Positions 4,121 to 56,671 of a stretch of DNA of 64,000 bases are shown here, in pieces. Position 1 is the stretch's first letter, and each line of letters opens with the position of its first letter. The translations under genes and the position numbers were made by a program. The DNA comes from Somniosus microcephalus (taxonomy: Eukaryota): NCBI GenBank assembly GCA_052327205.1, contig CM126225.1, positions 11,346,001 through 11,410,000 on the forward strand. The letters are read 5' to 3'. The notes under the pieces are model-generated. The model was given only the letters and a program-made list of their open reading frames with translations. It was not told the origin of the DNA and made no database searches.

Positions 4121-6199
4121 GAGGGACCTCACCCCCTTCAAGAAGTGAGTCAACCAAGAAGACTGGGGATTGCCCTTAGGTAGGTAAGATCCCCACCCTT
4201 ACCTTCCAACTTTTCCTTGTCCCACCCTATGTTAATGACCTCCTCCAGAAGTACGTCCTGTGCTCATCCCCACTCTCCCAACTCTGGCTCGCTCCTCCTT
4301 CTTCCGTTTGGCCACCTGAGGTTGCTCCTTCAGCCAGTTCTCCGCAGCCTGCTCCCTCAACACCTCTGCAATGACAGCCCCCTCCCTGCCTTCAATGTCT
4401 CCCAAAGATTCTTCCCTTCGCCCATGCTTCTCGCCTCCCCTCTTTTTTTCCTTTCTCCCTTCCTGCTCATCACACACGGTGCTGTAAAGCGCTTGAAGAA
4501 GTCTCTCTGTATGCGAGGAGACTACGGAGATAGAAGTTATTGTTGTAGTTGAGATTTAATTGAATTCCTATGTAAATGTTGATGCAGTGGGCGCGGGCGG
4601 ATGAGGTAGTAGCAGACCTCGACTATTTCAAAGGTAATGGTTCCTAAGCAGACAGTGCCTGGGATTTCATTCACCCCATTTCCCCCCGCCCCCCCCCCCC
4701 CCCGAAGGATACAGGGAAGGTCAAGTGTGTCCGAATATTAGTAATGGGTGAAACAAAAAAATGCGGCAAAAGCTGTGAGATAGACAGCAGAGGGCTAGAC
4801 TCCACCCGGAGTCAATATTTACCAGACAGGCTAACATCTGCTTCTTCTTAATGACAGCACATCTGGCTGTAGCCAATGAGAATCTGCTCATGTTACAGAC
4901 AATTGTAAGTTTTCAAAAGTCTAGCCATTTATTTGCTGGCACAAGTTCTGGTAGATTCAATGGCTGTTCGTTTGTTTGACTAATGAATAATGAACTATTT
5001 CGACCCTCTAACGCTGTTCCACATGCCTTGCTGTTCTAGCTTCTGCTCGCTTTGTTTAAACTATTTTTTTTTTAAATTACATGTAATATCGGCAACTCCC
5101 TTTTTATCCTGTTGTGTTCTGTATGTGAGAATCTTTGCAATGACCAGAATGGGCAGTCCTAACTTCTTGGCTGTAATACCAGGAAACTTGAGCCCCTGAA
5201 TGGCTGGGTGATCTGTCAGTCTCGGGCACATGCAGTGCTTTAGAAGACTGCAATGTTGCCCAATAATATACAGAAGGACTGAACAGAAAGCATGTCCAAA
5301 ATGAATGCTGTGGTTTATAGATTATTAATACAGGGAGAAGTTGATTGAAAGAGGGGACAGCAAAAACAACAATTACTGCCTTTAATGCAGCAATGGCCCA
5401 AGAAGCTTCACAGAGTAGAAATGGATCCTCAGCAGTAAGAGTGGGAGAGTTAGGGGAGGTGACTAAAGACACGGGCCAGGAATTTTCTTGTATCTGCTCC
5501 CGATCTGCTGGCACAACTTCACTGGAAGTGCAGCTTACAAGGAAATTCCTGGTCATGGTCAAGGAAGTAGGTTCAGAGGAGACTTTTGAAGGTGGGGAGA
5601 CAAGCAGCAAGAGGGAGGCTTTAAAGTGGCAGAGTTCCAAAGAGAGGGCAAGGCTCTGTCACTGATGGTGGAACAAAGGGAGGGAGATGCACAGGAAGTC
5701 AGAGATGGAAGAGCAGAGGCCATGAGCTTGGTCTTAGGGCTGGAGGAGGCTCCAGATGCAAGGTGGGGCGAGGCCATGGAGGGATTTGTAAATAAGGACA
5801 AGGATGTGGAATTAAATGCATTGGAGAATGAGGAACAACAAGATGGAGTGAATGGTAGAGCAAGATGGAGAGCAAAAGAGAGAGGTGGAGAGAGCGAAAG
5901 AGAAAATGGGAAAGCAAGAGAGACAGAGAGAAAAAAAAAGGTGAAAGGAACAAAGAGTGAGAGAACAAGAGATAGAGAGAGAGAGAGAATAAGACAGAGC
6001 AACAAAAAGAGAAAATGAGGGGTAGCAAAACTAACGAGAGAGTAAGGAAAAAAGAACGATTGAGAGGTTGTAGAAAAAGAGAGGATAAGAGAGAATAAAA
6101 GACAGCAAGGGAGAGAATTACAGAATGTGAGAATGTGAGTCGGAGACAAAATGAGATAAACTGAATGAACAACAACATTAGAATGAGAGATATAGATAG

Positions 6200-6540: not shown

Positions 6541-6635
6541 AGATAGAATTAGAGATTGAAAATGCATGACGGAGAAAGACAGAGCGATCAAGAGAATGAA
6601 GCAACAGAGAGACACAGATAGTACAGGAGTATGTT

Positions 6636-7455
6636 GGAAAGTGTGAGGTTATGCACTTTGGCAGAAAAAATCAAAGAGCAAGTTATTATCTAAATGGAGA
6701 GAAACTGCAAAGTGCTACAGTACAAAGGGATCTGGGGGTCCTGGTGCATGAAAAACAAAAAGTTAGTATGCAGGTACAGCAGGTGATCAGGAAGGCCAAT
6801 GGAATCTTGGCTTTTATTGCAAGGGGGATGGAGTATAAAAACAGGGAAGTCTTGCTGCAGTTATACAGGGTATTGGTGAGGCCACACCTGGAATACTGCG
6901 TGCAGTTTTGGTTTCCATATTTAAGAAAAGATATATTTGCTCTCGAGGCGGTTCAGAGAAGGTTCACTCGGTTGATTCCAGAGATGAGGGGGTTGACGTA
7001 TGAGGAAAGGTTGAGTAGGTTGGGACACTACTCATTGGAGTTCAGAAGAATGAGAGGCGATCTTATCAAAACATATAAGATTGTGAGGGGGCTTGATCGG
7101 GTGGATGCGGTGAGGATGTTTCCACTGATGGGTGAGACTAGAACTAGGGGGCATAATCTTAGAATAAGGGGCTGCCCTTTCAAAACTGAGATGAGGAGAA
7201 ACTTCTTCACTCAGAGGGTAGTAAATCTATGGAATTTGCTACCCCAGAGAGCTGTGGAAGCTGCAACATTAAATAAATTTAAAATGGAGATAGACATTTT
7301 CCTAGCAGATAAGGGAATTAGGGGTTACGGGGAGCGGGCAGGGAAGTGGACGTGAGTCTAGATTCAGATCAGCCATGATCCTATTGAATGGCGGAGCAGG
7401 CCCGAGGGGCCGTATGACCTAATCCTGCTCCTACTTCTTATGTTCTTATGTTCTT
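6636..7455 (+). mobile_element. 5'-truncated CR1 LINE (RT C-terminus, 3' UTR, (ttcttatg)n tail)
   Basis: ORF 6651..7355: DLGV...YRVLVRPHLEYCVQFW...RRMRGDLI...RNFFTQRVVNLWN. Confidence 0.95.
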
Positions 7456-12669: not shown

Positions 12670-13045
12670 TAGAACATGAGAACATAGGAATTAGGAGTAG
12701 GGGTCGGCCATACGGCCCCTCAAGCCTGCTCCGCCATTCAGTAAGATCATGGCTGATCTTCGACCTCAACTCCACTTTCCTGCCCGATCCCCAAATCCCT
12801 TGATTCCCGAAGAGTCCAAAAATCTATCGATCTCTGTCTTAAATATACTCAACGATCGAGCCTCCGCAGCCCTCTGGGATAGAGAATTCCAAAGGTTCAC
12901 AACCCTCTGAACGAAGAAATTCCTCCTCATCTCTGTCCTAAATGGCCGACCCCTTATTCTGAGACTGTGACCCCTGGTTCTAGACTCCCCAGCCAGGGGA
13001 AACATCCTCCCTGTCAAGCCCCTTAAGAATTTTATATTTTCAATA
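12670..13045 (-). mobile_element. CR1 LINE 3' fragment
   Basis: ORF 12766..13017: MFPLAGESRTRGHSL...RNFF.QRVVNLWN. Confidence 0.9.
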
Positions 13046-13548
13046 GCATGATGAGCTAGATGGGCTGAGTGGCCTCCCTTGTCTTTATGATCTTTGTGAT
13101 ATGATCAGTATTGTCTATAGTAGAAATACTAACTCATTCCACAGCTACACCTAAGACAGATGTGAACGTTGATTTAATGAATTCTGTACCTGTTCCTTTT
13201 GCAGGATGACTGACGGGGGAGCTGCCTGTGTCATTGTTACCCATTCATAGAAACCTGCATTGAGGATGTTTCCCAGCGCATCTGTTCCTCTGTTTCACTG
13301 ACGAAATAGAGAACATTTAACCCACCATGGACTAGTCTGTAAATAATGGATATACCTGGCAGTCCGAACATGCCCAGGGGTGAAGATTTGCTGTGTTCAT
13401 CACTGCTCATTGACCTCCTTTCTTTAAATAGTTCACATAGGCCACTAGCTACTCAGCACAGCTTATGCAGCTCTACCAGCCGCCTCATAACGCCTGCCTC
13501 CTCAAATCAGCGTTCAGGGAACACCAATTACAGAAGCCATGCCAACAT

Positions 13549-13777: not shown

Positions 13778-14079
13778 AACATCATGTTTGCTCACTGGGG
13801 CCTACTGATGAGTCCAGGTAGTTATGGTGGGCAGAGATTGTCAATGTTGTCTGCAGTAGGTCAATCCAAAACTGCTACATAAGGGGGACGTGAGTGTTAA
13901 GTCTGTGTGTTATATTGCGAATTACTACACAGACCACAAGAGTAAACTTTAACAGGACTTTACTGGTTGAAGGTCAGGGCGGAACTGCCCAATAAATCAT
14001 TACACAGCACTTATATACTGGTGTGGTCACCACCGGTATTACAGTATACAGCAGCCAAGATAAAGTAGTGCAACTCTTA

Positions 14080-14768
14080 GGCCTAGAAATTCACTGGCCT
14101 TAGCGCCACTTTTGAGGCGCTAGAGGGCCTAGCGCCGAAGTTATGGCCAGTTTAGAAATTGACAGGGGCCCTAAATCGGCGTTAGGCCGGTAGCGCTGCA
14201 CCGGCACCGATGACGTCATCGGTGTGCGCAGCGTCCCGGTTGCCATGGTAACCCGCCCGAACTCGGAAATTGAGTTGCGGCCGCCTCGCCCGTGGCAGCC
14301 GCAAGCAACGTTCTGGCAGAGGTGCCTTCCAGAACTTTGCGCCGGCGCATTAAAGGCCCCGCGGCGGCCGGCCGCTTTCCCGCCGGCCGCCTGGCCGCAG
14401 CTCCCTCCCCGGACTTCCCCCCCCCGCCCCCCCGGAACAGAAGCAAGCCCGGCACTTGTCCGAGGTGCCGGGCTCATTTTTAAAAAGATTATCGCGGGCC
14501 GCGGCCGGGTGCAGGCAGCTCCTCCTTAACGGAAGGAGGAGGCCTGCACTTCCCGAGCCTGCCGCACCACAGCGGGCGCCGCAGCGCCGGAATAGCGCTG
14601 CAATGCGGCGCGTGGCGCCAGTTTTGAGGCGCTGAGACCCCTCAGTAGCGCCAGCAGCCGTTTGGGCGCGGCGCTACTGAATTTTTGGCGCGCGCGCAGG
14701 GGGACTTAGCGCCGGCACTAACTTCCGGCGCTAAAGCCCTCGCTGCGCCAAAACCGAATTTCTAGGCC
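14080..14768. mobile_element. PIF/Harbinger-like MITE inserted into the 3' LTR of copy 1
   Basis: Perfect TIRs GGCCTAGAAATTC...GAATTTCTAGGCC; TTA duplicated on both sides; the other LTR shows the empty site (actctta|aaatag). Confidence 0.92.
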
Positions 14769-14923
14769 TTAAAATAGTTCCCTTAAAGGTAGAACGGTTC
14801 TCTTAAAGGTGGAACGGTTACATACACTACAATCCTCCCTTTTTAGCTTAACAGTATATGTTCCCCATTAAACATAACATCATAACATATATACACAACT
14901 TCATGTGAAAACAGTTCACAGAT

Positions 14924-17830
14924 TCAGTCTCTGCGGTGGCGCCTCCTGCGCTTCCTGATTCGGTCCGGATAACGCCTCGGTGGTGTAGTAGTTTTCGATG
15001 GTGTAGTAGGTTCTTGTTGCTGGGGTGACTCATCTAATAGTCCTTCACTGGACTTAACAGCTTGAACTTCTGTAGCTTCAGAACCAGCTTGAACTTCCGT
15101 AACTTCAGAACCAGCATTGCTGACTTCTAAAAGCTCGAGTACCTTGGGAAGTTTTTCTACTTCCAAACTGATTTGACTCAGTTCGGAGGGACCACGTGCG
15201 TGACCTGGTAGAGGTGATAATGGTTCAGATGGGTCATCATCTTCTGCTTCGTCTTTTCCTTTTCTGCTTCTTGGAGACTCTCTGGGCTCCACTCCCAGCT
15301 GCATGCACAGTTCCTCCTCCTCTTCCTCCTGTTGCCATAGTAGCGCCACCATCTCCCGGTGTTTCTTAGACTTTTCGTGATTCTTCATGGTTTTTGCACT
15401 TTGGAAGATTTCCCCACAAGCTGGGCAGAACAGGTCATGGTAATATTCGGTGTCGTCCTGAACTAGGCCAGCGAGAGGGTCTTCTATTTCCTCCATGCCC
15501 AGCTGGACGTTAGCCAGCTTTTGTTCCAAATCCAGACATCTCTCCTGAAGAGACTTCTTCATGTGTTCAGCTTCATCCAGCTTTTTCTGGGCTTCCTGCA
15601 AGTCTTTTACTAATGACATCATTTGTGATTTCAATACTTCAACTTCATTCGGAGATTGATTGATCGGACTAGTCAATCCCTCTACTGGAGCAGCTGTTTC
15701 AGCATTCTGTTGTTCTACATTGACGTGAGTCAGCGTACTCTTGGCATCCAAGGGCTGCTCTGCTGCAATCTTCTCAGTCTGTGTTGCAACCTCAGCTATT
15801 TCAATAACTTTTGAGAGCTCCGAACCCCTTTCCTTTGAAGATTGAAGCTCGTGTTCAAGTTTTTCCCATTTCAGAGTCTTGTCCCTCAGCATATGAAGGA
15901 GTTGGCTGACCGTTAACTCTTCTGACATCAGACGTTTCCCAGTATCGTCGTCATGTGTTTTTGACGTATAGGCTGCAGGGCTGTTTGTAACCTTGCACTG
16001 GGGCTCCTTTGCTACTTTTAATTCGCCATCAACCGCAGCCTCCACCATTCGAATTTCAACAAATGAATCGTCCGGTGATGCTGCACCCAACTTCAGTAGG
16101 AGCTCGGAATTCATGGCAACCAAATCAGCCTTTTCTGCCTGCAACCTGCTAACAAGCGCCTTCAGTTGCTGAACATCTTGCTCCACCAGATTAGAGCACG
16201 CACCTTCAGAAACCGAATCAGCTTTGATTCGTTTGGCCTCCTCGCGCAGACGGTTTGTGTGTTCCTGCTCCATTTTCTCCATCAGCTGCTTCTGCTGTCT
16301 TTCCAGATTCTCCCACTCTGTGTCAAAGAACTTTTTCGTTGCATTCATCTCTTGCTCAAAACGGCGAATCATTTGTTCTAATTGCTGTTGTAGTTTGAAT
16401 TGGAGTTGAGTTCGAGCCCGGTGTTCCTCAGAAATGTGCATGTCTGTAGACTGGACAGACTCAGAATTCTCTGTCAAACTATGTTGTTGTTGTTCAGTGG
16501 AATTCTGTTCTGATACTTTGTTCTCCTCTGAAGCATAAGCATTTATGCACTCCTTCGTTTCTCCATCATTAGTCTGCAAGTCCATTTTAGACTTGTCTTT
16601 TGCACATGGGCTGGTCTTACCATCATCAGTTCCAGAGTCTGAGCTGATTGTCTTCACCGAGTTCTCACTCTTTATTGCTTTTAGGGAGTGCCAGTCCATA
16701 TTTATTTTCCTGATCCACTCCCGTCCCAGAAGTGGTGGACCTCCCTCAGGTAGTACATATAAGTCCATTCCTTGGTGTTCTTTGCCCTTGTGTCTCACCT
16801 TGACTTTTATCTTTCCGATGGGGTATACTCTTTGCCCCGTGTATGTCTGCAATACAATCTTGGTATCTCTCAAGGGTATATGTGAGAATAGCCGCTTGTA
16901 GTCCCTTCGGTTTATGACTGTTAGGGCTGATCCTGTGTCCAATTCCATTTTCACGTGGACTCCGGCTATCTTGAGCGTGACCCAGATAGTTTGTAGGTCA
17001 GCTTCCTTACTCACATTGTGAATTCTCAGACTACCCAGTTCCTGGCTGTTGGAGTCTGAATCCGAATTCTGTTCATCCGAACTCTTCTCAGCCACCTTAT
17101 TTACCTTTCTGCACTTTTCCTGCGGTGACTTTTTGTTGCTGGTCTTCTTACCTGACCGGCATACGTTAGCTATGTGACCAAGCTTGCCACATTTTCTACA
17201 TTCCTGGTTTTTAAACCAGCATTGGTTCTGATCGTGTGTTGTCTTTCCACAACGATAACATTTCGTTGTACCCAAAGCCATTTGATCTACGCCGAGTACC
17301 GCGGCCTTCAGCTGCATTTCCGCCGTGCCTCTCGCTGCGGCTTCGTGCGATGCTGCAATAGAGACAGCCTTATCAAGTGTAAGATCATTCTCTTTGAGCA
17401 GTCGCTTTTGTGTTCCTTCCTTTGCCAACCCACACACGAACTTGTCTCTCAGTGCCTCTGTCAGATTTTCCCCAAACTGACAGTATTTCGCTAGCCTACG
17501 CAGTTCAACCAAGTACTCCGCGTTGCTTTCCTCTTTCAGTTGCGTTCTCGCATAAAATTTAAATCGTTCTGCTAACATCAGCGGTGTGGGGTTCAAATGA
17601 TCCTTCAGGACAGCAACAATATTAGCGAAAGTCTGATCCGCCGGTTTAGCTGGTGATAGAAGATGCTTCAATAGCCCGTATGTCTTCGCACCCATTGAGT
17701 TTAGTAAGGTTAGTGCTTTATCATCATTTGATATTTTATTTGCCTTACAATATATCTCTATGCGTTCTACATACGTGGCCCAATCTTCCACATCGGGATC
17801 GAAATCGTTGATGTTACCACGCTTAGGCAT
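14924..17830 (-). CDS. 968-aa chimeric ORF: Gag + 2 CCHC knuckles + aspartic protease, fused to STK10/SLK-, OPTN- and DNAJC21-like segments
   Basis: Gag motifs ([19 protein letters not shown]), [14 protein letters not shown] and [14 protein letters not shown] knuckles, protease ELDTGSA...LLGREW; no YxDD RT, RNase H or DDE integrase motifs; C-terminal half matches recalled host protein sequences. Confidence 0.9.
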
Positions 17831-18224
17831 CTTCGCAATCTTTTTTTTTTGAGAAACAACGACGAAATTTTTCTTTAACTTTTTTTTTCAAAAAAAAATG
17901 GCGGTTTCCCGCGCTTATCTTCTTCCCCGCCTCCGAGAATGGCGGTTTCCCGCGCTTGACTTCTTCCCCGCCTAAATGGCGGCTTCCCGCGTTTCTTCCT
18001 CTGGCGGGAGGTGTAAAGCTTTGCCCTCGGGCGACGACCGCTGGCTTTCGGGGTTCGCAGCCTGCGCGCCGGCTTCAGTTTATTCTGAAAGCGCGAGAAC
18101 AGCTGATTGAGTTCCTTGTTCCCTTTCCCGACAGGGGCAACCGGGCGCTGGGGACAACCAGTTGGCGGCGGACAGTTCCAGCTCTTGGTCCTTTGCGGAA
18201 AGCTGCTGTAAGCCGCTGGGCGGA

Positions 18225-18500
18225 AATCTCGCTCGGTCTCCCTCGCTCGGTCCCGTTCTCCCTCGCTCGCTCGGTCTCCCTCGCTTGCACGGTCTCCCTC
18301 GCTCGCTTGGTCCCGTTCTCCCTCGCTCGCTCGGTCTCCCTCGCTCGCACGGTCTCGTTCTCCCTCACTCGCTCGGTCTCCCTCGCTCGCTTGGTCCCGT
18401 TCTCCCTCGCTCGCTCGGTCTCCCTCGCTCGCACGGTCTCGTTCTCCCTCACTCGCTCGGTCTCGTTCTCCCTCGCTCGCTCGGTCTGTCTCTCCCGCTC
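18225..18500. repeat. CT-rich tandem repeat expansion (ctccctcgctcgc(t/a)cggt units) in the 5' leader of LTR copy 1
   Basis: Visible tandem units; much shorter in the equivalent region of copy 2. Confidence 0.85.
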
Positions 18501-19660
18501 GCTCGGGCTCTGTCTCTCCCGCTGGCTGTAACAGCGATTGCCGTATTGCTGCATTCGCCCTCCCCAGCGGTTTTCAATCGTGCCTCCCAGCCCTCTTGCA
18601 GTCCGGTCCTTTCTCCCCCGGCTGCGGCTGAGTTCTCCGCGTTTTTTTATTTTTTTTATTTTCTCCCGCGTCTTACGATCCCGGTCGCTGCGCCACGTGG
18701 CCTCGGTAGCTGCCCGGCCTTTTTCACCGGTCGCGGTCGAGCTGTCTCTCGATGCTGTTGCGTCTCCCAGCCCACTTGTAGCCCGGTCTCTCACACCGGC
18801 TGCGTTCCTTCACCGCGGCTTCCGTGCCCTACGCTGCCCCAGTCTCAGCGCCTCTGGCCCCGACTTCTGTCCGGCTCCTTTCCCCGGCCGTGGTCGAGTT
18901 CTCCGCCCTTATATCCTCCGTTTTTTTTTATTTTCTCCCCTACTCACAGTCAACGTGGCCGACTTGCTTCTCGTCGCTGATCGGCTCACCCACCACCGTG
19001 ATAGAAGGGACGATCACTGCCTGTTGCTGATGGAAGGCTTCGTGTCAGAATTCTTCCTTCTTCCTTTGCTCTGCAGACTCGAGTCTTCTCTCAGCAGAAT
19101 GACGAGGGCGGATGCCTCTTCTCGACGCCCGTTAAACTGCCTTGGATGTATCTCTGCCGCAGGGTAAGATCGAACTCGTCACCACTGTTAAGTCTGTGTG
19201 TTATATTGCGAATTACTACACAGACCACAAGAGTAAACTTTAACAGGACTTTACTGGTTGAAGGTCAGGGCGGAACTGCCCAATAAATCATTACACAGCA
19301 CTTATATACTGGTGTGGTCACCACCGGTATTACAGTATACAGCAGCCAAGATAAAGTAGTGCAACTCTTAAAATAGTTCCCTTAAAGGTAGAACGGTTCT
19401 CTTAAAAGTGGAACGGTTACATACACTACAGTGAGCCTTAATTTGTTGAATTTAGCGCCACCTCCTTTTTTGAGCAGCTGACAAGAGACCCAGTCTGCCT
19501 CTGATAACTCCTCGTGCTGCACCCTGTTGTGCTACCAGCTCTCACCCTGTTCCCTTCGGCGAGGCCCCATTAGGAAGGGGTTAAAGACCACTTTAAAGTG
19601 GTCCGGTTGACCGGTTTACCCACCATGAATTTGCCAACAAAATATCACCCAAAGTACATT

Positions 19661-23122: not shown

Positions 23123-23774
23123 GGCCTAGAAATTCAGTGGTGCCCCGTTTGGGGCGCCAGCCTCGCCAGGGCGCTAAAAGTAGCGCCCCGGAAGTAGTCG
23201 CGGCCGCCCGCCGGAAATTGACTTTGCGCACCCCAGAGGGAAGCACGGCGCTACTCGAGGCGCCCCGCATCCCTCTTGGGGCGCTGCAACTCAATATCGT
23301 TGCGCAACGTGCCGCAGCACCACACGCTGCAGCACGGCGCGCTGCGGTACTGCAGGCCTTCCTCCCCTTCTTAAAGGGGAGGGGCCTGCTGGAGCGCGAT
23401 CAAAGATCGCGAGTGCCGGCAAAAGAGCCCGGCACCGAGGAGAAGTGCCGGGCTCTTGGAACACAGCCGGCACTCCACGGGGGGGAGCTCAGGAGGCCGG
23501 GGACGGCTGCGTGGAGAGGTGCTGGCAGGCGGCCAGCAAAATAAATGGCCACCCTGCAGGCGTTAAAGCAGGGGGCGCAACTAAATTTTGTGATCGGGGC
23601 AGTAGCGGGGCGCTGCGCACACCAATGACGTCATCGGTGGCGGCGCAGCGCTAACGGCTAGCGCCGCCATTAGCGTACTGCTAAATTTAGTGGGAGGCGT
23701 GGCCAGTGGCGTCCAACCCACTAAGTGCCCTCTTAAGGCGCTAACGGGTGGCGCAGCCCACTGAATTTCTGTCA
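23123..23774. mobile_element. PIF/Harbinger-like MITE related to 14080-14768
   Basis: Starts GGCCTAGAAATTC, ends GAATTTCTG; shares the internal atgacgtcatcggt motif and GCGCTA motifs. Confidence 0.7.
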
Positions 23775-28754: not shown

Positions 28755-30116
28755 TCAGTTCCGGGCCCCGCACCTCAGGAAGGATAGATTGGCCTTGGAG
28801 GGGGAGGAGCGCAGATTCACCAGAATGATACCGGGGCTTAAAGGTTCAAATTATGAGGACAGGTTGCATAAACCTGGCTATTTAGAAGGTTGAGAGGCAG
28901 TCTAATGGAGGAGTTTCAAATGATAAAGTGATCCTATTGGGTAGATACAGAGAAACTATTGCCTCTGGTGGGAAAGTCCAGAGCAAGAGGGCATAACCTT
29001 AAAATTAGAGCTAGGCCGTTTAGGAGTGAAATCAGGAAACACTTTTTCACACAAAGGGTAGTGGAAATCTGGAACTCACTCCCCCAAAATACTGTGGGCT
29101 AGGGGCACGCATGGCCACATAAGTACATCAATTATGGTTGGTAATGAAGAAGAAAGCTGCAGACTGCAGGAAGAAATCAATGGACTAGTCAGGTGGGCAG
29201 AACAGTGGCAAATGGAATGCAATCTGGAGAAGTGTGAGGTAATGCATTTGGGGAGGGTTAACAAGGCAAGGAAATACATTATAAATGGTAGGACACTGAG
29301 AAATGCAGAAAATCAGAGGGACCTTGGAGTGCATGTCCACAGATCCCTGACGGTAGCAGGACAGGTAGATAAAGTGGTTAAGCAGGCATACAGGATACTT
29401 GCCTTTATTAGCCGAGGCGTAGAATATAAGAGCAGGGAGGTTATGCTTCAACTGTATAAAACACTAGTTAGGCTGCAGCTAGAATACTGCGTGCAGTTCT
29501 GGTCACCACATTACAGGAGGGATGTGATTGCACTAGAGGGGGTGCAGAGGAGATTTACGAGGATGTTGCCAGGGCTGGAGAATTTTAGCTACGAGGAAAG
29601 ATTGGATAGGCTGGGGTTGTTTTCTTTGGAACAGAGGAGGCTGAGAGGAAACCTAATTGAGGTGTATAAAATTATGAGTGGCCTAGATAGAGTGGATAGG
29701 AAGGACGGGATGGATGGGCGGCGCGGACACGATGGGCCGAAGGGCCTCTTTCTGTGCTGTAAAACTCTATGACTCTATGACTCTATGACCTATTTCCCTT
29801 AGCAGAAAGGTCAATAATCAGGGGGCATAGAATTAAAGTAATTGGTAGAAGGATTAGAGGGGAGCTGAGGAGAATTTTTTTCACCCAGAGGGTGGTGGGG
29901 GTCTGGAACTCACTGCCTGAAAGGGTGGTAGAGGCAGAAACCCTCATCACATTTAAAAATACTTGGATATGCACTTGAAGTGCCGTAACCTACAAGGCTA
30001 CGGATCAAGTGCTGGAATGTGGGATTAAGGAGAGCTCTTTGTCGGCCTGTGCAGACAAGATGGGCCGAATGGCCTCCTTCTGTTCTGTAAATTTCAATGA
30101 TTCCATGATTCTATGA
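28755..30116 (+). mobile_element. Cluster of CR1 fragments; the main copy (29130-30116) carries a ~80-bp CR1 tail inserted at about 29707-29786
   Basis: ORF 29134..29772: LQEEINGLVRWAEQWQM...LEYCVQFWSP; the RT sequence resumes after (actctatg)n. Confidence 0.9.
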
Positions 30117-45345: not shown

Positions 45346-46140
45346 GAATGAATAAATCCTGACTCCAGGTGTGGTTGCGTTTGCACTATAGGGGTGATGC
45401 AGCGATCCGGCATTCCCAGTGGGGAACAGTGCTCGGAAGCAGGGCACCTTAGGAAATCGTGGGCACTCAATCTGTGATTTCCCATCCAATAATGAATGGA
45501 AAGTCACAGGCTATGTGCGTGTGTAGGTCAGTTCAAGAAGATAACCAATACGGTGGGCATCAATCATTTTAATGATCAAATACAATTAGTTACATATAGT
45601 AACAAGGCAGTAAGAACAAAAGATGGATATTACCCCAATCCTTCGGAGAACAGACGATCATGGATTCAAACTGTCCCTTTATTCTTTGCTCCTGTCCTGC
45701 CCTTCACGCTTAAGGTAGTTCTTTATATACCTACAACTCCATGTGGCAGCCACATGACCATGACATCATTCACCCTCAGCCAATCAGTGACACGGTAACC
45801 CCTTTAACCCATATGCTTCCTGTAAAGTCTGTGTGTTGTATAGCGAATTAATACACAGACTACAAGAGTAAACTTTAACAGGACTTTACTATTCGAAGGT
45901 CAGGGCGAATCTGCCCAATCACTCATTACACAGCACTTATATACCGGTGTGGTCACCACCGGTATTACAGTATACAGCAGCCAAAATAAAGTAGTGCAAC
46001 ACCTAAAATAGTTCTCTTAAAGGTGGACGGTTACATACAATAGTTCTCTTAAAGGTAGAACGGTTACATACACAACAATCCTCCCTTTTTAGCTTACAAC
46101 ATACTTATTTCCCATTAAACATAACATATATCCAACTTCA

Positions 46141-46260
46141 TGTAAAACAGTTCACAGATGTAGTCTCTGCGGAAAACAGTTCACAGATTCAGTCTCTGCG
46201 GGAAAACAGTTCACAGATTCAGTCTCTGCGGAAACAGTTCACAGATTCAGTCTCTGTGGA
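46141..46260. repeat. About 4 tandem copies of a ~29-bp unit (aaaacagttcacagattcagtctctgcgg) in the 3' region of LTR copy 2
   Basis: Single copy at the equivalent site of copy 1 (about 14908-14936). Confidence 0.85.
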
Positions 46261-46526
46261 GGCGTCTCCTGTGCTTCCTGACTCGGTCCGGACAACGCCT
46301 CGGTGTTGTAACAGTTCCCTGTGGTGTAGTCAGTTCACGTTGCTGGAGTGACTCATCCAATAGTCCTTCAATGGACTTAACAGCTTGAACTTCCATCACT
46401 TCTGAACCAGCATTGCTGACTTCTAAAAGCTTGAGTACCTTGGAAAGTTTTTCTACTTCCGAACTGATTTGGCTCCGTTCGGAGGGACCACGTGTGTGAT
46501 CTGGCAGGTGATAATGGTTCAGATGG

Positions 46527-49187
46527 TCATCTTCTGCTTCGACTTTTCCTTTTCTGCTTCTTGGAGACTCTCTGGGCTCCACTGTCAGCTGCCAGCTGCA
46601 TGCACATTTCCTCCTTCTCTTCCTCCTTTTTCCGTAGTAGCGCCACCATCTCCCGGTGTTCCTTAGACTTTTTGTGATTCTTCATGGTTTCTGCACTTTG
46701 GGAGTTTTCATCACAAGCTGGGCAGAACAGGTCATCGTAATATTCGGTGTCGTCCAACAGGTCATGGTAATATTCGGTGTCGTCCTGAGCTAGGCCAGCG
46801 AGAGGGTCTTCTATTTCCTCCATACCCAGCTGGACGGTAGCCAGCTTTTGTTCCAAATCCAGACATTTTTCCTGAAGAGACTTCTTCATGTGTTCAGCTT
46901 CATCCAGCTTTTTCTGGGCTTTCTGCAAGTCTTTTACTAATGACCTCATTTGTGATTTCAATACTTCAACTTCATTCGGAGATTGATTGATCGGACTATT
47001 CAATCCCTCTACTGGAGCAGCTGTTTCAGCCTTCTGTTGTTCTACATTGACGTGAGTCAGCGTACTTTTGGCATCCACGGGCTGCTCTGCTGCAGTCTGC
47101 TCAGTCTGTGTTGTCACCTCAGCTATTTCAATAACTTTTGAGAGCTCCGAAACCCTTTCCTTTGAAGATTGAAGCTCGTGTTCAAGTTTTTCCCATTTCA
47201 GAGTCTTGTCCCTCAGCATATGAAGGAGTTGACTGACCGTTAACCCTTCTGACATCAGACGTTTCCCAGTATCGTCATCCTGTGTTTTTGACGGATAGGC
47301 TACAGGGCTGTTGGTAACCTTGCACTGGGGTCCCTTTGCTGCTTCTAATTCTCCATCATCTGCAGCCTCCACCATTCGAATTTCAACAAATGAATCGTTC
47401 GGTGGTGCTGCACCCAACTTCAGTAGGAGCTCGGAATTCATGGCAACCAAATCAGCCTTTTCTGCCTGCAACCTGCTACCAAGCGCCTTCAGTTGCTGAA
47501 CATCTTGCTCCACCAGATTAGGGCACGCCCCTTCAGAACCCGAATCAGCTTTGATTCGTTTGGCCTCCTCGCGCAGACGGTTTGTGTGCTCCTGCTCCAT
47601 TTTCTCCATCAGCTGCTTCTGTTGTCTTTCCAGATTCTCCCACTCTGTATCAAAGAACTTTTTCGTTGCATTCATCTCTTGCTCAAGACGGCGAATTATT
47701 TGTTCTAATTGTTGTTGTAGTTTGAATTGGAGTTGAGTTCGAGCCCGGTGTCCCTCAGAAGTGTGCATGTCTGTAGGCTGGACAGACTCAGAATTCTCTG
47801 TCAAACTATGTTGTTGTTGCTCAGTGGAATTCTGTTCTGAAACTTTGTTCTCCTCTAAAGCATAAGCATTTATGCACTCCTTCGTTTTTCCAACATTAGT
47901 CTGCAAGTCCATTTTAGCCTTGTCTTTTGCACATGGGTTGGTCTTACCATCATCAGTTCCAGAGTCTGGGCTGATTATCTTCACCGAGTTCTCACGCTTT
48001 ATGGTTTTTAGGAAGTGCCAGTCCATATTTATTTTCCTGATCCACTCCCGTCCCAGAAGTGGTGGACCCCCCTCAGGCAGTACATATAAGTCCATTCCTT
48101 GGTGTTCTTTGCCCTTGTCTCTCACCTTGACTTTTATCTTTCCGATGGGGTATACTCTTCGCCCCGTGTATGTCTGCAATACAATCTTGGAATCTCTCAA
48201 GGGAATGTGTGAGAATAGCCTCTTGTAGTCCTTTCGGTTTATGACTGTTAGGGCTGATCCTGTGTCCAACTCCATTTTCACTTGGACTCCGGCTATTTTG
48301 AGTGTGACCCAGATAATTTGTAGGTCAACTTCCTTACTCGCATTGTGAATTCTCAGACTATCCAGTTCTTGGCTGTTGGAGTCTGAATCCGAATTCTGTT
48401 CATCTGAACTCTTCTCAGTCACCTTGTGTATCTTGCTGTGCTTTTCCTGCGGTGACTTTTTTTTGTTGCTGGTCTTCTTTCCTGACCGGCATACTTTAGC
48501 TATGTGACCAATCTTGCCACATTTTCTACATTCCTGGTTTTTAAACCAGCATTGGTTCTGGCCGTGTGTTGTCTTCCCACAACGATAACATTTCGTTGTA
48601 CCCGAAGTCACTTGATCCACGCTGAGTACCGCTGCCTTCAGCTGCATTTCCGCCGTGCCTCTCGCTGCGGCTTCGTGCGATGCTGCAATAAGGACAGCCT
48701 TATCAAGTGTAAGATCATTCTCTTCAAGCAGTCGCTTTTGTGTTCCTTCCTTCGACAACCCGCACACGAACTTGTCTCTCAATGCCTCTGTCAGATTTTC
48801 CCCAAACTGACAGTATTTCGCTAGTCTACGTAGTTCAACCAAATATTCCGCGTTGCTTTCCTCTTTCCGTTGCGTTCTCGCATAAAATTTGAATCGTTCC
48901 GCCAACATCAGTGGTGTGGGGTTCAAATGATCCTTCAGGACAGCAACAATATTAGCGAACGTCTGATCCGCCGGTTTAGCCGGTGATAGAAGATGCTTCA
49001 ATAGCCCGTATGTCTTCGCCCCCATTGAGTTTAGTAAGGTTATAGCTTTATCATCATCTTCTATTTTATTGGCCTCACAATATATCTCGATGCGTTCTAC
49101 ATACGTGGCCCAATCTTCTACCTCGGAATTGAAATTGTTGATGTTACCACGCTTAGGCATCTTCACAATCTTTCTAAGAAACAACAA
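46527..49187 (-). CDS. 886-aa chimeric Gag-protease-(STK10/SLK)-(OPTN)-(DNAJC21) ORF; likely start is the MPKRGN ATG at about 49160
   Basis: Colinear and highly similar to 14924..17830; a 7-nt difference near 46585 changes the C-terminal frame. Confidence 0.9.
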
Positions 49188-51851
49188 CGAAGTTTTCCTT
49201 TAACTTTTTTTTTCTAAAATGGCGGTTTCCCGCGCTGATCTTCTTCCCCGCCCACTTTCAAGATGGCGGTTTCGCGCTTGTCTTCTTCCCCGCCTAACTG
49301 GCGGCTTCCCGCGTTTCTTCCTCTGGTGGGAGGGGTAAGCTTTGCCCTCGGGCGACGACCGCTGGTTTACGGGGTTTGCAGCCTGCGCGCCGGCTTCAGT
49401 TTATTCTGAAGCGCGCGCGCGCGCGCGCGCGAGAACAGCCGATCGCGTTCCCTTTTTCGGCAGGGGCAACCGGCGCTGGGGACAACCAGTTGGTGTCGGA
49501 CAGCTCCAGCTCCCGGTCCTTCACGGCAGCCGCTGTAAGCCGCTGGCCGGAACCTCGCTCGGCCCCGCTCCCCCCTCGCTCGGGCTCTGTCTCTCCCGCT
49601 TGCCGGCATGGTCTCGCTCGCTCTCTCTCTCGGGCTCCGTCTCTCCAGCTCGCTCGGCTCTCCCAGACCTCCCGCAGTCCGGTCCTTTCCTCCCCCGGCT
49701 GCGGCCGAGTCCCTCGCAGTTTATTTATTTATTTATTGCCTCCGCGCCTTATGATCCCGGTCACAGCGCCTCGCGGCCTCGGTAGGTGCCCGGCCTTTAA
49801 CCCGCTGCGTTCCTGCTTGTAGTCCGGTCTCTCACACCGGCTGCGTTCCCTGCACCGCGGCTGCCGTGCCCTACGCTGCCCCAGTCTCAGCGCCTCTGGC
49901 CCCGACTTCTGTCCGGCTCCTTTCCCCTGGCCGTGGTCGAGTTCACCGCCCTTATCCTCCGTTTCTTTTTTATTTTTCCCCCTACTCACAGTCAACGTGG
50001 CCGACTTGCTTCTCGTGGCTGATCGGCTCACTCACTACCGTGACAGAAGGGACGACCACTGCCTGTTGCTGATGGAAGGCCTCGTGTCAGATTTCTTCCT
50101 TCTTCCTTGCTCTGCAGACTCGAGTCTTCTCTCAGCAGAACGGCGAGGGCGGATGCCTCTTCTCGACACTTGTTAACTGCTTCGGATGTATCGCTGCCGC
50201 AGGGTAAGATCGAACTCGTCGCCACTGTAAAGTCTGTGTGTTGTATAGCGAATTAATACACAGACTACAAGAGTAAACTTTAACAGGACTTTACTATTCG
50301 AAGGTCAGGGCGAATCTGCCCAATCACTCATTACACAGCACTTATATACCGGTGTGGTCACCACCGGTATTACAGTATACAGCAGCCAAAATAAAGTAGT
50401 GCAACACCTAAAATAGTTCTCTTAAAGGTGGACGGTTACATACAATAGTTCTCTTAAAGGTAGAACGGTTACATACACAACACTTCCATTTTTTATTTTT
50501 CCCTGAATCTTTCCAGCAGATTTCCATCAGAAATAACTTAAAACAAACTGCAGTAACTGAGGAGAGTCCCGCTCCATTATTTTTTTCCCCAGCTGAGTGG
50601 TTCCTGAGGAATTTTGGGCTCTCTGCTTAAAAAGTGTCTGGGCAGATGAAACTTGGCTTTGCATAGGGCTGTTGTCATAGTTCAATGGGCGTAAACCCCA
50701 AGCAGCTTGATACTACCTCCTGGAGGTTGCCCAATATCTCATGCCTAAGTTCACCTGAATACAGTCCATTGAGGCAAAGCATCGGCATAAAATGTGCATT
50801 ATAACAGAGCTGTGCTGAGGGGGACATAGTGCCAATCAGCAAAACTCATTAGACTATTGCATTTCGTTGCTGCCAATTTTCTACCCTTCTGAAAGCACTG
50901 ACTCGCAGCTAGAGCACAGTTCCATGTCACCCACTCATCCAAGTGGCCATTATTTATGTGTGGACTTTACATCGTGAGTGTTGGCAGGATAAACGACAGT
51001 GCCAATCCTGATCTTGTCTTCACCCAACATCCACACGCACGCCGTCTGCTGAACAATGATCAGTAGGAGGGACCATGGGTGGTCACCCCACCACCTGAAC
51101 CCAAAGGCATTGCGGGGAATCAGTTCCCTTTACTGGTAGCCTCGCTGAGATCAGCCAACTCCGTGCCAAATGGGGATTGAACTTGGGACCTTCCTGGTCT
51201 TCATAGCTCAGCTGCTCCCTGCCTTAACCAGTTGAGAGACTATGCCATTTACAATCAGCCCTCTGAACTCAACACATGATTTTAATATCTCACAGATGTA
51301 GTAGAGCAATTAGACAAGAGCTTTAGGGATTACACAATTTAATATTTTTTTAAAGAAAGAGCTCCAGCATTGTGTAATTATTTTTACTGAAATCGCTATT
51401 ACTCTTCAAAAAATGCCCCGCTCCTGTAGAAGAAAAATATTTGAACTCATTGCAATAATTTTTGAATTTTGGAACCATGGGAATGGTAAGTTCGCTGAAC
51501 CTGATCAAAGCGGGATTGTTGTTTTATTTTTCACTTCATCGAGCGCTGACTGCCCTCCGACCCCTTCGGTCATGATGATGTCATTGCGCTCTGCGCCAGG
51601 GAATGTGGCCTTCTCTTGTTAGAAAAATAAAAATAATGAGTCAGTCTCTGGAGCTCCTCAATGCTCTTTGCAGGTAGAACAAACTTGTTATGACAGGAGA
51701 CTCAGCAGGAGAGAGAAGAAAATATTCGCCGAGAAGGATACTTTAAAATATTTTTGCCTTTTAAGTTTCGTTTTAATTTTAGGTGCTGATTTTAGTTAAT
51801 AAAAACTGCTTTCTATTTTTTGATAGTGATCCAGTGGGTGGAAATTTAGGT

Positions 51852-54800
51852 TGTATAGAGCCTTGGTCACTGGTATAGAGCCTTGGTCACTGGTATAGAG
51901 CCTTGTTCACTGGTATAGAGCCTTGGTCACTGGTATAGAGTCTTGGTCACTGGTATAGAGTCTTGGTCACTGGTATAGAGTCTTGGTCACTGGTATAGAG
52001 CCTTGGTCACTGGTATAGAGCCTTGGTCACTGGTATAGAGTCTTGGTCACTGGTATAGAGCCTTGGTCACTGGAATAGAGCCTTGGTCACTGGTATAGAG
52101 TCTTGGTCACTGGTATAGAGTCTTGGTCACTGGTATAGAGCCTTGGTCACTGGTATAGAGCCTTGGTCACTGGTATAGAGCCTTGGTCACTGGTATAGAG
52201 CCTTGGTCACTGGTATAGAGTCTTGGTCACTGGTATAGAGCCTTGGTCACTGGTATAGAGCCTTGGTCACTGGTATAGAGTCTTGGTCACTGGTATAGAG
52301 TCTTGGTCACTGGTATAGAGCCTTGGTCACTGGTATAGAGTCTTGGTCACTGGTATAGAGTCTTGGTCACTGGTATAGAGTCTTGGTCACTGGAATAGAG
52401 CCTTGGTCACTGGTATAGAGCCTTGGTCACTGGTATAGAGCCTTGGTCACTGGTATAGAGCCTTGGTCACTGGTATAGAGCCTTGGTCACTGGAATAGAG
52501 CCTTGGTCACTGGTATAGAGCCTTGGTCACTGGTATAGAGCCTTGGTCACTGGTATAGAGCCTTGGTCACTGGTATAGAGCCTTGGTCACTGGTATCGAG
52601 CCTTGGTCACTGGTATAGAGCCTTGGTCACTGGTATAGAGTCTTGGTCAGTGGTATAGAGTCTTGGTCACTGGTATAGAGCCTTGGTCACTGGTATAGAG
52701 CCTTGGTCACTGGTATAGAGCCTTGGTCACTGGTATAGAGCCTTGGTCACTGGTATAGAGCCTTGGTCACTGGTATAGAGCCTTGGTCACTGGAATAGAG
52801 CCTTGGTCACTGGTATAGAGTCTTGGTCAGTGGTATAGAGTCTTGGTCATTGGTATAGAGCCTTGGTCACTGGTATAGAGCCTTGGTCACTGGTATAGAG
52901 CCTTGGTCACTGGTATAGAGCCTTGGTCACTGGTATAGAGTCTTGGTCACTGGTATAGAGTCTTGGTCACTGGTATAGAGTCTTGGTCACTGGTATAGAG
53001 TCTTGGTCACTGGTATAGAGTCTTGGTCACTGGTATAGAGTCTTGGTCACTGGTATAGAGTCTTGGTCACTGGTATAGAGCCTTGGTCACTGGTATAGAG
53101 TCTTGGTCACTGGTATAGAGTCTTGGTCACTGGTATAGAGTCTTGGTCAGTGGTATAGAGCCCTGGTCACTGGTATAGAGCCTTGGTCATTGGTATAGAG
53201 TCTTGGTCAGTGGTATATAGTCTTGGTCAGTGGTTTCGAGCCTTGGTCACTGGTATAGAGCCCTGGTCACTAGTATAGAGCCCTGGTCACTGGTATAGAG
53301 CCTTGGTCAGTGCTATAGAGCCTTGGTCACTGGTATAGAGCCTTGGTCACCGGTGTAGAGCCTTGGTCACTGGTATAGAGTCTCGGTCACTGGTATAGAG
53401 TCTTGGTCACTGGTGTAGAGCCTTGGTCACTGGTATAGAGTCTTGGTCACTGGTATAGAGTCTTGGTCACTGGTATAGAGTCTTGGTCAGTGGTATAGAG
53501 TCTTGGTCACTGGTATAGAACCCTGGTCAGTGGTATAGAGCCCTGGTCAGTGGTATAGAGCCTTGGTCACTGGTATAGAGTCTTGGTCACTGGTATAGAG
53601 CCTTGGTCACTGGTATAGAGCCTTGGTCACTGGTATAGAGCCTTGGTCACTGGTATAGAGCCTTGGTCACTGGTATAGAGCCTTGGTCACTGGTATAGAG
53701 CCTTGGTCACTGGTATAGAGCCCTGGTCAGTGGTATAGAGTCTTGGTCATTGGTATAGAGCCTTGGTCACTGGTATAGGGCCTTGGTCACTGGTATAGAG
53801 CCTTGGTCACTGGTATAGAGTCTTGGTCACTGGTATAGAGTCTTGGTCAGTGGTATAGAGTCTTGGTCAGTGGTATAGAGTCCTGGTCAGTGGTATAGAG
53901 CCTTGGTCACTGGTATAGAGCCCTGGTCACTGGTATAGAGTCTTGGTCACTGGTATAGAGCCTTGGTCATTGGTATAGAGTCTTGGTCAGTGGTATAGAG
54001 TCTTGGTCAGTCGTTTCGAGCCCTGGTCACTGGTATAGCGCCCTGGTCAGTGGTATAGAGCCCTGGTCACTGGTATAGAGCCTTGGTCACCGGTGTCGAG
54101 CCTTGGTCACCGGTATAGAGTCTTGGTCAGTGGCATAGAGTCTTGGTCACTGCTATAGAGCCTTGGTCACTGGTATAGCGTCTTGGTCACTGGTGTAGAG
54201 CCTTGGTCACTGGTATAGAGCCTTGGTCACTGGTATAGAGTCTTGGTCACTGGTATAGAGTCTTGGTCAGTGGTATAGAGTCTTGGTCACTGGTATAGAA
54301 CCCTGGTCAGTGGTATAGAGCCTTGGTCACTGGTATAGAGTCTTGGTCACTGGTATAGAGTCTTGGTCAGTGGTATAGAGTCTTGGTCACTGGTATAGAA
54401 CCCTGGTCAGTGGTATAGAGTCTTGGTCACTGGTATAGAGTCTTGGTCACTGGTATAGAGTCTTGGTCAGTGGTATAGAGTCTTGGTCACTGGTATAGAA
54501 CCCTGGTCAGTGGTATAGAGTCTTGGTCACTGGTGTAGAGCCTTGGTCACTGGTATAGAGCCTTGGTCACTGGTATAGAGTCTTGGTCACTGGTATAGAG
54601 TCTTGGTCACTGGTATAGAGTCTTGGTCAGTGGTATAGAGTCTTGGTCAGTGGTATAGAACCCTGGTCAGTGGTATAGAGCCTTGGTCACTGGTATAGAG
54701 TCTTGGTCACTGGTATAGAGTCTTGGTCAGTGGTATAGAGTCTTGGTCACTGGTATAGAACCCTGGTCAGTGGTATAGAGTCTTGGTCACTGGTGTAGAG

Positions 54801-55209
54801 CCTTGGTCACTGGTATAGAGCCTTGGTCACTGGTATAGAGTCTTGGTCAGTGGTATAGAGCCCTGGTCAGTGGTATAGAGTCTTGGTCAGTGGTATAGAG
54901 CCTTGGTCACTGGTATAGAGCCTTGGTCACTGGTATAGAACCCTGGTCAGTGGTATAGAGTCTTGGTCACTGGTATAGAGTCTTGGTCAGTGGTATAGAG
55001 CCTTGGTCAGTGGTATAGAACCCTGGTCAGTGGTATAGAGCCCTGGTCAGTGGTATAGAGTCTTGGTCAGTGGTATAGAGCCTTGGTCACTGGTATAGAG
55101 TCTTGGTCACTGGTATAGAGCCCTGGTCAGTGGTATAGAGCCTTGGTCACTGGTATAGAGCCTTGGTCACTGGTATAGAGCCTTGGTCAGTGGTGTAGAG
55201 CCTTGGTCC
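51852..55209. repeat. 20-bp minisatellite (tggtatagag[c/t]cttggtcac), about 168 units, derived from CR1 RT sequence
   Basis: Uninterrupted 20-bp period; the right flank continues as CR1 RT coding sequence. Confidence 0.97.
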
Positions 55210-55490
55210 ATTCCCATCTGGAGTTCTGCGTTCAGTTCTGGGCACCGCACCTCAGGAAGAATATATTGGCCTTGGAGGAGGTGCAGCGTAGAATCACCAG
55301 AATAATACCGGGGCTTAGAGGGTTAAATTATGAGGACAGGTTATGGCTTGTATTCCTTTGAATATAGAAGATTGGGGGTGATCTGATCGAGGTGTTTTAA
55401 AGGAGAAAACGATTTGATAGGGTAGTTACAGATGAACTATTTCCTCTGATGGGGAATAATCTTCAAATTAGAGTCAGGCCATTCAGAAGC
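55200..55490 (+). mobile_element. Degenerate CR1 LINE RT fragment
   Basis: Reads as HLEFCVQFWAPHLRK..LALEEVQRRITRIIPGL. Confidence 0.85.
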
Positions 55491-56671
55491 GTTTATTGAA
55501 TTCAATTTGACAACTTGCCATGGTGGGAGTCGAACTCATAGCCTCTGGGCTGCTGGTCCAGTATGACAAGCACTCAGCTAGTGCACTCTCTGTCCTTCAT
55601 CCAATGTCAACACACTCGTACATTTCAGCAGCAGTCACTGGATAGTAATGAAGAATGGCTGAATTTCCCCTCCACCGCCCCCCCCCCTCTTACCCTAACC
55701 AAGAGGGGCTGAGGTCAGTCATAACGTCCACTGATCGCTGTCTGAGATGAACCGATGCGTACCAGGGATCAATCATGGGATTGTGCTGATCTGTTCAGCT
55801 CCGTTTCACACTGGCCAACGCACTTACCAAGTGGGAATTCGCTATTTTTTTTTTCAAATCGTATTCCCAGACACATGCTGTTGCCAAACATTTTCCATTC
55901 AGTCCACACTGAGTGTCATTCATCTCGAAGGTGGACGCTGACTGAATTTTGAAACCCTAGCGGCGATTGAATTCACAGCCATTCTGCGCCAGCGCTCCAT
56001 GCTAACGCCACTGACAGCTCCCAAAATACCATCCAGGACCAAAAGTGGGGGGGGGTGGAGGGGGGCCACTGATCTGCACCAAGCTGTTCACTGAGGGAGG
56101 ATCAGAACCAACACCAGCCAAGCAACCTCTTGGTTGGTTTTTAGGCCCAATGGTTGCGGGGGAAATGATTCAAAAAGTAAATCTCTTCAACACGTCTTTT
56201 TTTTTTTTTAGTTTGGCTGAAAAGATGTTTTTTTGTCTCAACAAGATGGCGGGAGTACTTTCTGCAAACTGCACGCTGACAACTATTACCTTCTCCTTAA
56301 ATCTCTCTCCCAGCCATGTCTGGAATGCAGTAACCAGTAAAATTCCAAGCAGTTGTTTGTGCCAAAACCATGGAAAGAACAGACAGATGACCTGGGGGAG
56401 AGCAAGATATGAAGCAGTGCTGCTCTTTGGGTGCCTCGGCACCATTTCCAGGAATACAGACACGCGGGAGTTTTACTAGGTGTAGCGTTCTGGCCACAGA
56501 CACGGTCCAGACATCACAACCACATGTGAATTAAATTTCCCATTTATAAATCTGCGCATTTTGTTATGTCTCCTACTGAAAAAGAAGTGTTTGTAAACTT
56601 CAAAATTATACGCTTAATGCTTGTAAATAAATAATTCAAAACTGTAGATCATTTGTCTCTCCCTTCAATTC

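Follow-up and report, generated by a model that had tools for sequence, protein, structure and literature searches.

A young, high-copy Gypsy-type element of the shark Somniosus microcephalus, devoid of reverse transcriptase and integrase, with in-frame pieces from three host genes, of which the first was likely captured from a circular RNA

Oncogene-transducing retroviruses are replication-defective, carry host sequence fused to gag, and depend on a helper. Host sequence is also found in long terminal repeat (LTR) retrotransposons. Maize Bs1, reported to exist in one to five copies (PMC5131818), holds parts of exons from three unlinked host genes, and its copies are described as sharing switch points and having been re-mobilised (PMC5131818, PMC13317346, PMC7264820). 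In animals, LTR-mediated retrocopies are described as partial mRNAs between element arms with microsimilarity at the switch points (Tan et al. 2016, PMC5131818). The same account reports multi-gene chimeras (in a mouse case, of four genes), non-autonomous re-mobilisation, and pieces that are mostly sense and in frame; the word 'circular' is absent from its main text. Pseudogenes derived from circular RNAs are marked by a non-colinear exon junction, for example in 33 mouse circRFWD2 copies; LTR sequence is reported to be enriched in their flanks, and the mechanism is called mysterious (Dong et al. 2016, PMC4897178). Here, we analyzed a 64,000-nucleotide (nt) stretch of the shark Somniosus microcephalus (GenBank assembly GCA_052327205.1, contig CM126225.1, positions 11,346,001 to 11,410,000 of the forward strand; hereafter the window), in which a minus-strand LTR element at 19430-13895 carries pieces of STK10, optineurin (OPTN), and DNAJC21. 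We hold with good confidence that this is a young, high-copy Gypsy-type element without reverse transcriptase (RT) and integrase, that its in-frame host pieces were likely gained serially by template switching, with a circular RNA as the likely source of the first, and that it is likely mobilised in trans.

The element consists of a 5' LTR, a site resembling a primer-binding site (PBS), a leader, one open reading frame (ORF), a polypurine tract (PPT), and a 3' LTR, within a target-site duplication (TSD). A second copy, 26 kb away at 50482-45821 (minus strand), belongs to another subfamily and is about 90% identical. The features, in the direction of transcription, are as follows.

19431..19435, minus strand: target-site duplication, 5' side (5 bp, CTCAC)
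19186..19430, minus strand: 5' LTR (245 bp, TG..CA)
19175..19184, minus strand: PBS-like decamer, one base past the 5' LTR, common to the full-length relatives
17831..19174, minus strand: 5' leader (~1.35 kb), with an 18/24-nt tandem array at about 18227-18530
14924..17830, minus strand: single stop-free ORF for Gag, protease, cargo, and tail (968 amino acids, aa)
17153..17830, minus strand: Gag; its two CCHC knuckles start at 17260 and 17200
16697..16981, minus strand: aspartic protease (Pfam)
16426..16671, minus strand: 3' part of STK10 exon 9 (96% nt identity to host), after a 90-nt deletion of the earlier-stage protease/STK10 junction
16218..16429, minus strand: STK10 exon 11-12 piece, PKK coiled coil (95-97% to host), spanning the exon 11/12 junction
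15486..16226, minus strand: OPTN piece spanning six host exons with exact joins (95-98%; 86% for one exon, from a 21-nt deletion)
15479..15496, minus strand: 18-nt remnant of STK10 exon 8, overlapping the OPTN end via a shared 11-nt word
15251..15478, minus strand: DNAJC21 C2H2 zinc-finger piece, inside STK10 exon 8, assigned at the protein level only
15029..15250, minus strand: end of STK10 exon 8 and start of exon 9 (94-98%), with a 27-nt internal duplication; it lies 3' of exon 12 sequence, a permuted order
14924..15028, minus strand: integrase C-terminal tail, a mosaic of two tail types known from full-length relatives
14832..14844, minus strand: polypurine tract
14769..14831, minus strand: 3' LTR, first part
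14080..14768, no strand assigned: miniature inverted-repeat transposable element (MITE) within the 3' LTR, with 13-bp terminal inverted repeats and a TAA duplication
13895..14079, minus strand: 3' LTR, second part (100% identity to the 5' LTR)
13890..13894, minus strand: target-site duplication, 3' side (5 bp, CTCAC)
45821..50482, minus strand: second copy (LTRs of 257 bp with 0 differences, own TSD, cargo from the same three genes, ORF of 877 aa)

An earlier account made from the letters alone (hereafter the sequence-only reading) had described an intact LTR, PBS, PPT, and TSD element. LTRs that differ at 1 of 245 bases, a PBS-like site, a PPT, and a CTCAC duplication are indeed present, but the 3' LTR is split by an insertion of ~689 bp (14768-14080) that carries terminal inverted repeats and is a MITE, presumably of the PIF/Harbinger type. 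This insertion is GC-rich; related pieces lie at 23421-23666 of the window, and a 71% relative sits at a like site in a copy (L122) of the parent described below. The single ORF at 17830-14924 is stop-free over its 968 aa, as had been claimed. Above the Pfam cut-off it matched aspartyl protease (aa 284-371, E 2e-7), PKK (aa 480-539, E 5e-16), and zf-C2H2_jaz (aa 800-825, E 3e-7); zf-CCHC (E 0.004) and Retrotrans_gag (E 0.16) remained below it, two CCHC arrays being nonetheless plain in the sequence. A six-frame search against a full-length relative returned only Gag-protease as significant (90%), and no remnant of RT, RNase H, or integrase core in any frame; a pol hidden in another frame was thereby rejected, and the claim that Gag-protease continues without a stop into non-retroelement sequence instead of pol stood. 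The nearest proteins were K02A2.6-like Gypsy-type polyproteins of fish and invertebrates. The element at 19430-13895 is an LTR retrotransposon without RT and integrase core, and it is non-autonomous. The feature list of the sequence-only reading was incomplete, in that it missed two long STK10 pieces (aa 388-468 and 859-934), the 18-nt exon 8 remnant, the integrase-type tail, and the second copy.

Next to Gag-protease, the cargo could be traced to its donors. A protein search with aa 390-968 gave 118 matches, whose domain sets were in every case those of optineurin, STK10/SLK, or DNAJC21, and sharks stood at the top. Compared with sawshark proteins, aa 388-468 correspond to STK10 400-478, aa 468-539 to STK10 616-687, aa 540-782 to OPTN about 133-384, and aa 859-934 to STK10 322-388. 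Protein identity was 80% to shark OPTN, 87-90% to shark STK10, and 57-59% to shark and ray DNAJC21. Two assignments of the sequence-only reading, optineurin at ~16219-15515 and the DNAJC21 C2H2 finger at ~15510-15250 (the latter at the protein level only), were borne out; a third, an STK10/SLK coiled coil at 16429-16220, narrowed to STK10, and SLK was ruled out as a donor at 49-70% identity for SLK-type proteins. In the window's own genome (6.45 Gb), the OPTN cargo maps to six consecutive host exons on C17, whose five junctions are joined precisely at the splice sites, while the STK10 cargo of the window copy maps to host exons 8, 9, 11, and 12 on C8 at 94-98% (exon numbers follow the human gene). 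Both are thus intronless partial host RNA between element arms, as in LTR-mediated retrocopies. Host DNAJC21 exons 1-4 lie at 2.65-2.68 Mb of C1; beyond them, beside assembly gaps, no later exon was seen in the 300 kb examined. A PF21884 profile found two exons on C17, neither of which matches DNAJC21, and the DNAJC21 piece had no match at E 1e-12 in a protein search against longer proteins, which is weak evidence. Judged by sequence identity, the cargo donors are STK10 (four pieces), optineurin, and DNAJC21 (protein match only). None of the fragments includes the kinase, J, or ubiquitin-binding domain. The microhomology that had been predicted for the cargo junctions was found, with 4-11 nt shared at most of them: a 417-nt deletion before the STK10 exon 11-12 piece has 4 nt, the 5' end of OPTN shares 8 nt with STK10, and the switch points together have 11 nt and 7 of 8 nt (first STK10 capture), 8 and 7 nt (OPTN), and 4 and 11 nt (deletions). 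We also noted that STK10 intron 10 apparently starts with GC rather than GT (L072:3682), and that host OPTN exons contain frame-breaking 1-nt homopolymer indels in the assembly (L056:4785-4794, 5346-5375), likely sequencing errors.

The relatives of the element form a five-step series of separate multi-copy families: a gag-pol parent; a family with STK10 only (stage 1); the same minus 417 nt (stage 2); plus OPTN (stage 3); and plus DNAJC21 minus 90 nt (stage 4). The parent is about 5.3 kb long, with a single gag-pol ORF ending near the PPT, and its gag-protease region is 96-99% identical to stage 1 and 90-92% to the window copy. Of 150 scored candidates from a search with an STK10 stretch that is absent from the window, 98 matched, and most of these had no introns. 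In the 20 stage-1 loci examined the order is Gag-protease, the 3' part of STK10 exon 9, exons 10, 11, 12, and 8, the 5' part of exon 9, and the integrase tail. A pattern for the protease end had 16 exact matches, of which 13 run into RT (parent) and 3 are stage 2; a pol-deleted element without cargo was not among these 16. When the query was OPTN sequence that extends past the piece in the window, all six non-host loci examined had STK10 and a longer OPTN, but no DNAJC21 (stage 3). In stage 4, to which both window copies belong, the OPTN end and part of exon 8 have been lost across an 11-nt shared word, DNAJC21 stands inside the remaining STK10 exon 8, and 90 nt are gone at the protease junction. 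Divergence of the STK10 cargo from the host rises from 1.2% (20 loci) through 2.0% (2) and 2.9% (6) to 3.5% (26) in stages 1-4, and is 7% in the second window copy. Consistent with this order, a host-rooted tree nests the stages with support of 0.78, 0.77, and 0.86 (the tree and divergence values leave out the truncated L126 and three near-identical scaffold copies). Two other searches did not lead to the parent: a 66-nt DNA query gave no match and was uninformative, and the top 30 gag-pol loci from a distant-polyprotein search belong to another family (64-71% nt identity).

Sister branches were seen as well. In one (L207-L210, L221) the back-splice junction described below is kept, and an insert of ~950 nt that encodes immunoglobulin domains lies in STK10 exon 8 instead of OPTN; in the PDB it matches titin and myosin-binding protein C best. 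L211 and L225:2702-3181 have a further in-frame insert directly 3' of the protease, the end of which we take to resemble KMT2A near the taspase cleavage site. A family atlas search with this insert returned no family.

The permuted exon order led us to the origin of the first capture. In the host, a GT donor follows exon 12 and an AG acceptor precedes exon 8; stage 1 fuses these two exon ends without a base gained or lost, and in frame. This exact 12-to-8 junction was present with no more than one mismatch in 21 of 23 loci tested, the other two having a nearby 1-nt deletion and a truncation, respectively. Exons 8-12 total 1,245 nt without an in-frame stop, and the distance from entry to exit is exactly 1,245 nt in 14 of the 20 stage-1 loci (1,188-1,279 in the others). 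Only exons 8-12 match the insert, with nothing from exon 7 or 13, and the host has one copy of exons 8-12 in the 120 kb examined. The entry and exit points share a single 11-nt site in exon 9; it matches the protease/RT linker of the parent over 11 nt (entry), and 7 of 8 nt agree with one of the parent tail types (exit); four 11-nt words are common to the circle and each of the two parent tiles checked, hence such a match is not rare per se. The exact junction is found in stages 1-2, and in the window copy it has been replaced, so that only the permuted order is left. Because the exon 12-to-8 junction is exact and the insert is one lap long, the first donor was likely a circular STK10 RNA, not an mRNA. 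Serial capture of spliced host mRNA by template switching, as proposed by the sequence-only reading, therefore fits OPTN with its five exon junctions, and fits the junction microhomology, but probably not STK10.

Exact matches to the junctions allowed us to count copies genome-wide. There are at least 2,074 copies of the STK10/tail junction (whole lineage), at least 898 of the back-splice junction, and at least 110 of the OPTN/DNAJC21 junction of the window subfamily; these are lower bounds, and reversed controls each gave 0, whereas the 3,961 candidates of a first-look search do not measure copy number. Taken in its wide sense, stage 4 may make up about half of the lineage, since the DNAJC21 piece is present in 12 of the first 22 listed lineage places (one not examined). 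Fifteen of 20 stage-4 copies were parsable, all with perfect, different 5-bp TSDs and 0-4 LTR differences; 7 of 10 stage-1 copies had 1-6 differences and 4 of 8 parent copies had 1-2. Across all stages each parsed copy has its own 5-bp TSD, one with a mismatch. On the evidence of few LTR differences and separate TSDs, all stages have been mobile in recent times and in parallel. On small scaffolds, four copies (L014-L017; C151, C53, C45, C44) have the same alignment profile and are likely segmental duplicates or assembly redundancy, not independent insertions.

An autonomous partner, which the sequence-only reading had called for, is at hand in full-length gag-pol relatives with near-identical LTRs: the window 5' LTR is 94-98% identical to the LTRs of four of five such relatives and 87-88% to those of the fifth. 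The shared LTRs and the mosaic tail suggest continued co-packaging with parents and, for the same reasons, mobilisation in trans by full-length relatives is likely. We propose that RT, copying the element's 3' end, would have jumped onto a co-packaged circular RNA of STK10 exons 8-12, gone once round, and returned at the same exon 9 site, which also matches the protease/RT linker. It may have stopped after one lap because RNase H destroys the template, or because entry and exit lie at one homologous site; alternatively, one lap could reflect insertion at one homologous site before the loss of pol. Later mRNA pieces (OPTN, DNAJC21) would then have replaced the back-splice junction, and full-length gag-pol relatives would mobilise the cargo-bearing copies in trans. 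Selection probably acts on Gag-protease and on the long open frame (through translation in cis or RNA stability) more than on the amino acids of the cargo.

Non-colinear junctions are reported to arise by other routes as well (PMC4897178), and the 12-to-8 junction could come from a linear RNA, either by trans-splicing or as the transcript of a since-lost tandem exon duplication. Several observations that would fit such an origin also weigh against our account. In RNA run X15 (raw reads, matched by species label), the STK10 part that occurs only in the host and stage 1 is covered by 0-2 reads, and no circle is seen in RNA; RNA contigs of two relatives contain the linear order only, contigs being prone to drop rare forms; and no inverted repeats between introns 7 and 12 were found at E 1e-5. 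Even so, we consider a linear source quite unlikely: the host locus has a single copy of each exon, the insert is exactly one lap with nothing from the neighboring exons, and switch points on a duplicated linear transcript need not be one unit apart. Outside STK10, the finger exon of host DNAJC21 was not in the C1 tiles at 2.44-2.74 Mb, which contain assembly gaps, leaving 57-59% protein identity as the evidence for this donor, and the stage tree has modest support, with the second window copy on a long branch. Gaps and 1-nt indels in the assembly might also raise the suspicion of a chimeric locus, or of a single domesticated host gene. This is next to impossible, as 40 of 40 scored matches, spread over many contigs, span the cargo over its full 1.5 kb at 98-100%, TSDs are distinct among copies, and short-read contigs of DNA run X10 bridge the OPTN/DNAJC21 and DNAJC21/STK10 junctions. 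Two DNA runs with different organism labels, one of which may be the source of the assembly, cover all 30 bins.

Next, we investigated whether the reading frame and its cargo are maintained. The pairwise ratio of replacement to silent differences (pN/pS) was 0.18-0.26 for gag and 0.14-0.22 for the protease (p<0.006); for the cargo, comparison with the host gave 0.56 (p 0.12) and comparison of the two window copies with each other 0.71 (p 0.23), and the DNAJC21 piece has 12 replacement changes and 1 silent change. Purifying selection is evident in gag and protease, and not clearly so in the cargo. Ten of the 11 rearrangements on the path to the window copy are in frame. The eleventh, from DNAJC21 to STK10, is read through in the window subfamily, which differs there by small indels. 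The FVEI motif of OPTN, which we take to be the LC3-binding motif, is kept in both window copies and in six stage-3 loci. As for expression, X15, the one stranded run, has about 5-25-fold sense bias over gag, protease, and cargo. A variant with a 318-nt in-frame cargo deletion (window 15935-16254) is frequent in RNA runs X15 and X16 and in DNA run X10. A loose end of 428 reads at window 15922 may mark another cargo junction.

We think it likely that selection is on Gag-protease and the long open frame, and that the cargo is mostly filler. The frame is not kept throughout. ORFs of at least 950 aa were found in only 8 of 20 evaluated sister copies (nine further copies were not evaluable; ORF lengths are affected by the assembly, in which 1-nt indels occur even in host OPTN exons), and in the second window copy (877 aa) and four other loci the ORF stops at the DNAJC21/STK10 junction, ~90 codons early. 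The low pN/pS of gag and protease may derive in part from exchange with full-length relatives, because pS is 0.38 in the protease and 0.13 in gag and the tail is a mosaic. RNA run X16 is only weakly stranded, and in X15 21,620 of 31,084 placed reads are 90-95% alike, so that the sense-biased reads reflect expression of the family rather than of the window copy. It is possible, if rather unlikely, that cargo and frame are neutral hitch-hikers, that only cis signals matter, and that in-frame junctions result from microhomology between coding sequences. The early-stop subfamilies are common and recently mobile (0 of 257 LTR differences in the second window copy) and constraint on the cargo is not significant, as such neutrality would have it; against this, we estimate the chance of ten in-frame rearrangements out of 11 at about 1e-4 for one in three each (a figure inflated by codon-phase bias), Gag-protease is constrained, and the early stop still falls within the last tenth of the ORF. 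A cargo that is itself selected as an accessory protein, its coiled coils, FVEI, and zinc finger aiding the particle or blunting host defence, would also account for the in-frame rearrangements, the sense transcription, a cargo pN/pS below 1 in all pooled comparisons (0.56-0.71), and the retained motif. We find this doubtful, for no cargo pN/pS is significantly off 1, the DNAJC21 changes are nearly all replacements, the 318-nt deletion is frequent in RNA, and the cargo has been repeatedly deleted and replaced, with unrelated inserts in the sister branches. Equally doubtful is the broader idea that the host modules joined to the element, the optineurin autophagy motif among them, were selected because they help a defective element to out-replicate its helper, accessory proteins thus being built by serial capture.

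Elsewhere in the window, a 20-bp satellite of ~168 or more units occupies 51713-55300 and a second simple tandem array 56600-57300. There are 3' fragments of LINE (long interspersed nuclear element) ORF2 at 6600-7355, 12766-13104, 29062-29772, and 60824-62226, presumably of CR1 type.

How does this family compare with the systems described so far? Although the sequence-only reading knew of no description of a Gag-protease-cargo family, and none of this shark family was found in the literature searched, which excluded subscription journals, Repbase, Dfam, and supplements (these may list similar fish or mouse cases), the general type is known from Bs1 and from animal LTR-mediated retrocopies. 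Its single ingredients have precedents; one-lap capture of a circle, fusion to Gag-protease, preserved stages, and copy number were not found together in that literature. Every stage of this multi-gene exon shuffling persists in the genome, within mobile copies that number in the thousands, and one can thereby test directly whether what was captured is retained for its protein or merely as open frame. In addition, expression and annotation of STK10, OPTN, and DNAJC21 in the shark are confounded by element transcripts.

By its two CCHC arrays, the single gag-pol ORF of the parent, and its K02A2.6-like nearest proteins, the family resembles the Mag clade of Ty3/Gypsy, for which two CCHC arrays are a reported feature, shared with Micropia/Mdg3 (PMC2577118). 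Pol is absent from the window copy. Unlike the transducing retroviruses, the element has no env and its captured fragments lack a kinase domain; moreover, its nearest proteins are Gypsy-type and its ~5.3-kb parent is a one-ORF gag-pol element rather than a gag-pol-env helper of the Retroviridae. Like maize Bs1, it is an LTR retrotransposon with pieces of three host genes. By contrast, the shark lineage has at least 2,074 copies, lives in a vertebrate, has its parent and intermediate stages still present, fuses its cargo to Gag-protease, and shows a back-splice junction in its first capture. The LTR-mediated retrocopies of Tan et al. (2016) are described as single or few-copy loci, unlike the shark family. 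Finally, how circular RNAs are written back into genomes is left open in the account of Dong et al. (PMC4897178), and the shark case offers a specific, testable mechanism. Compared with the pseudogenes described there, it shows the parent, both switch points, their microhomology, and the one-lap length, and its circle is fused in frame to Gag-protease, with at least 898 copies that keep the junction.

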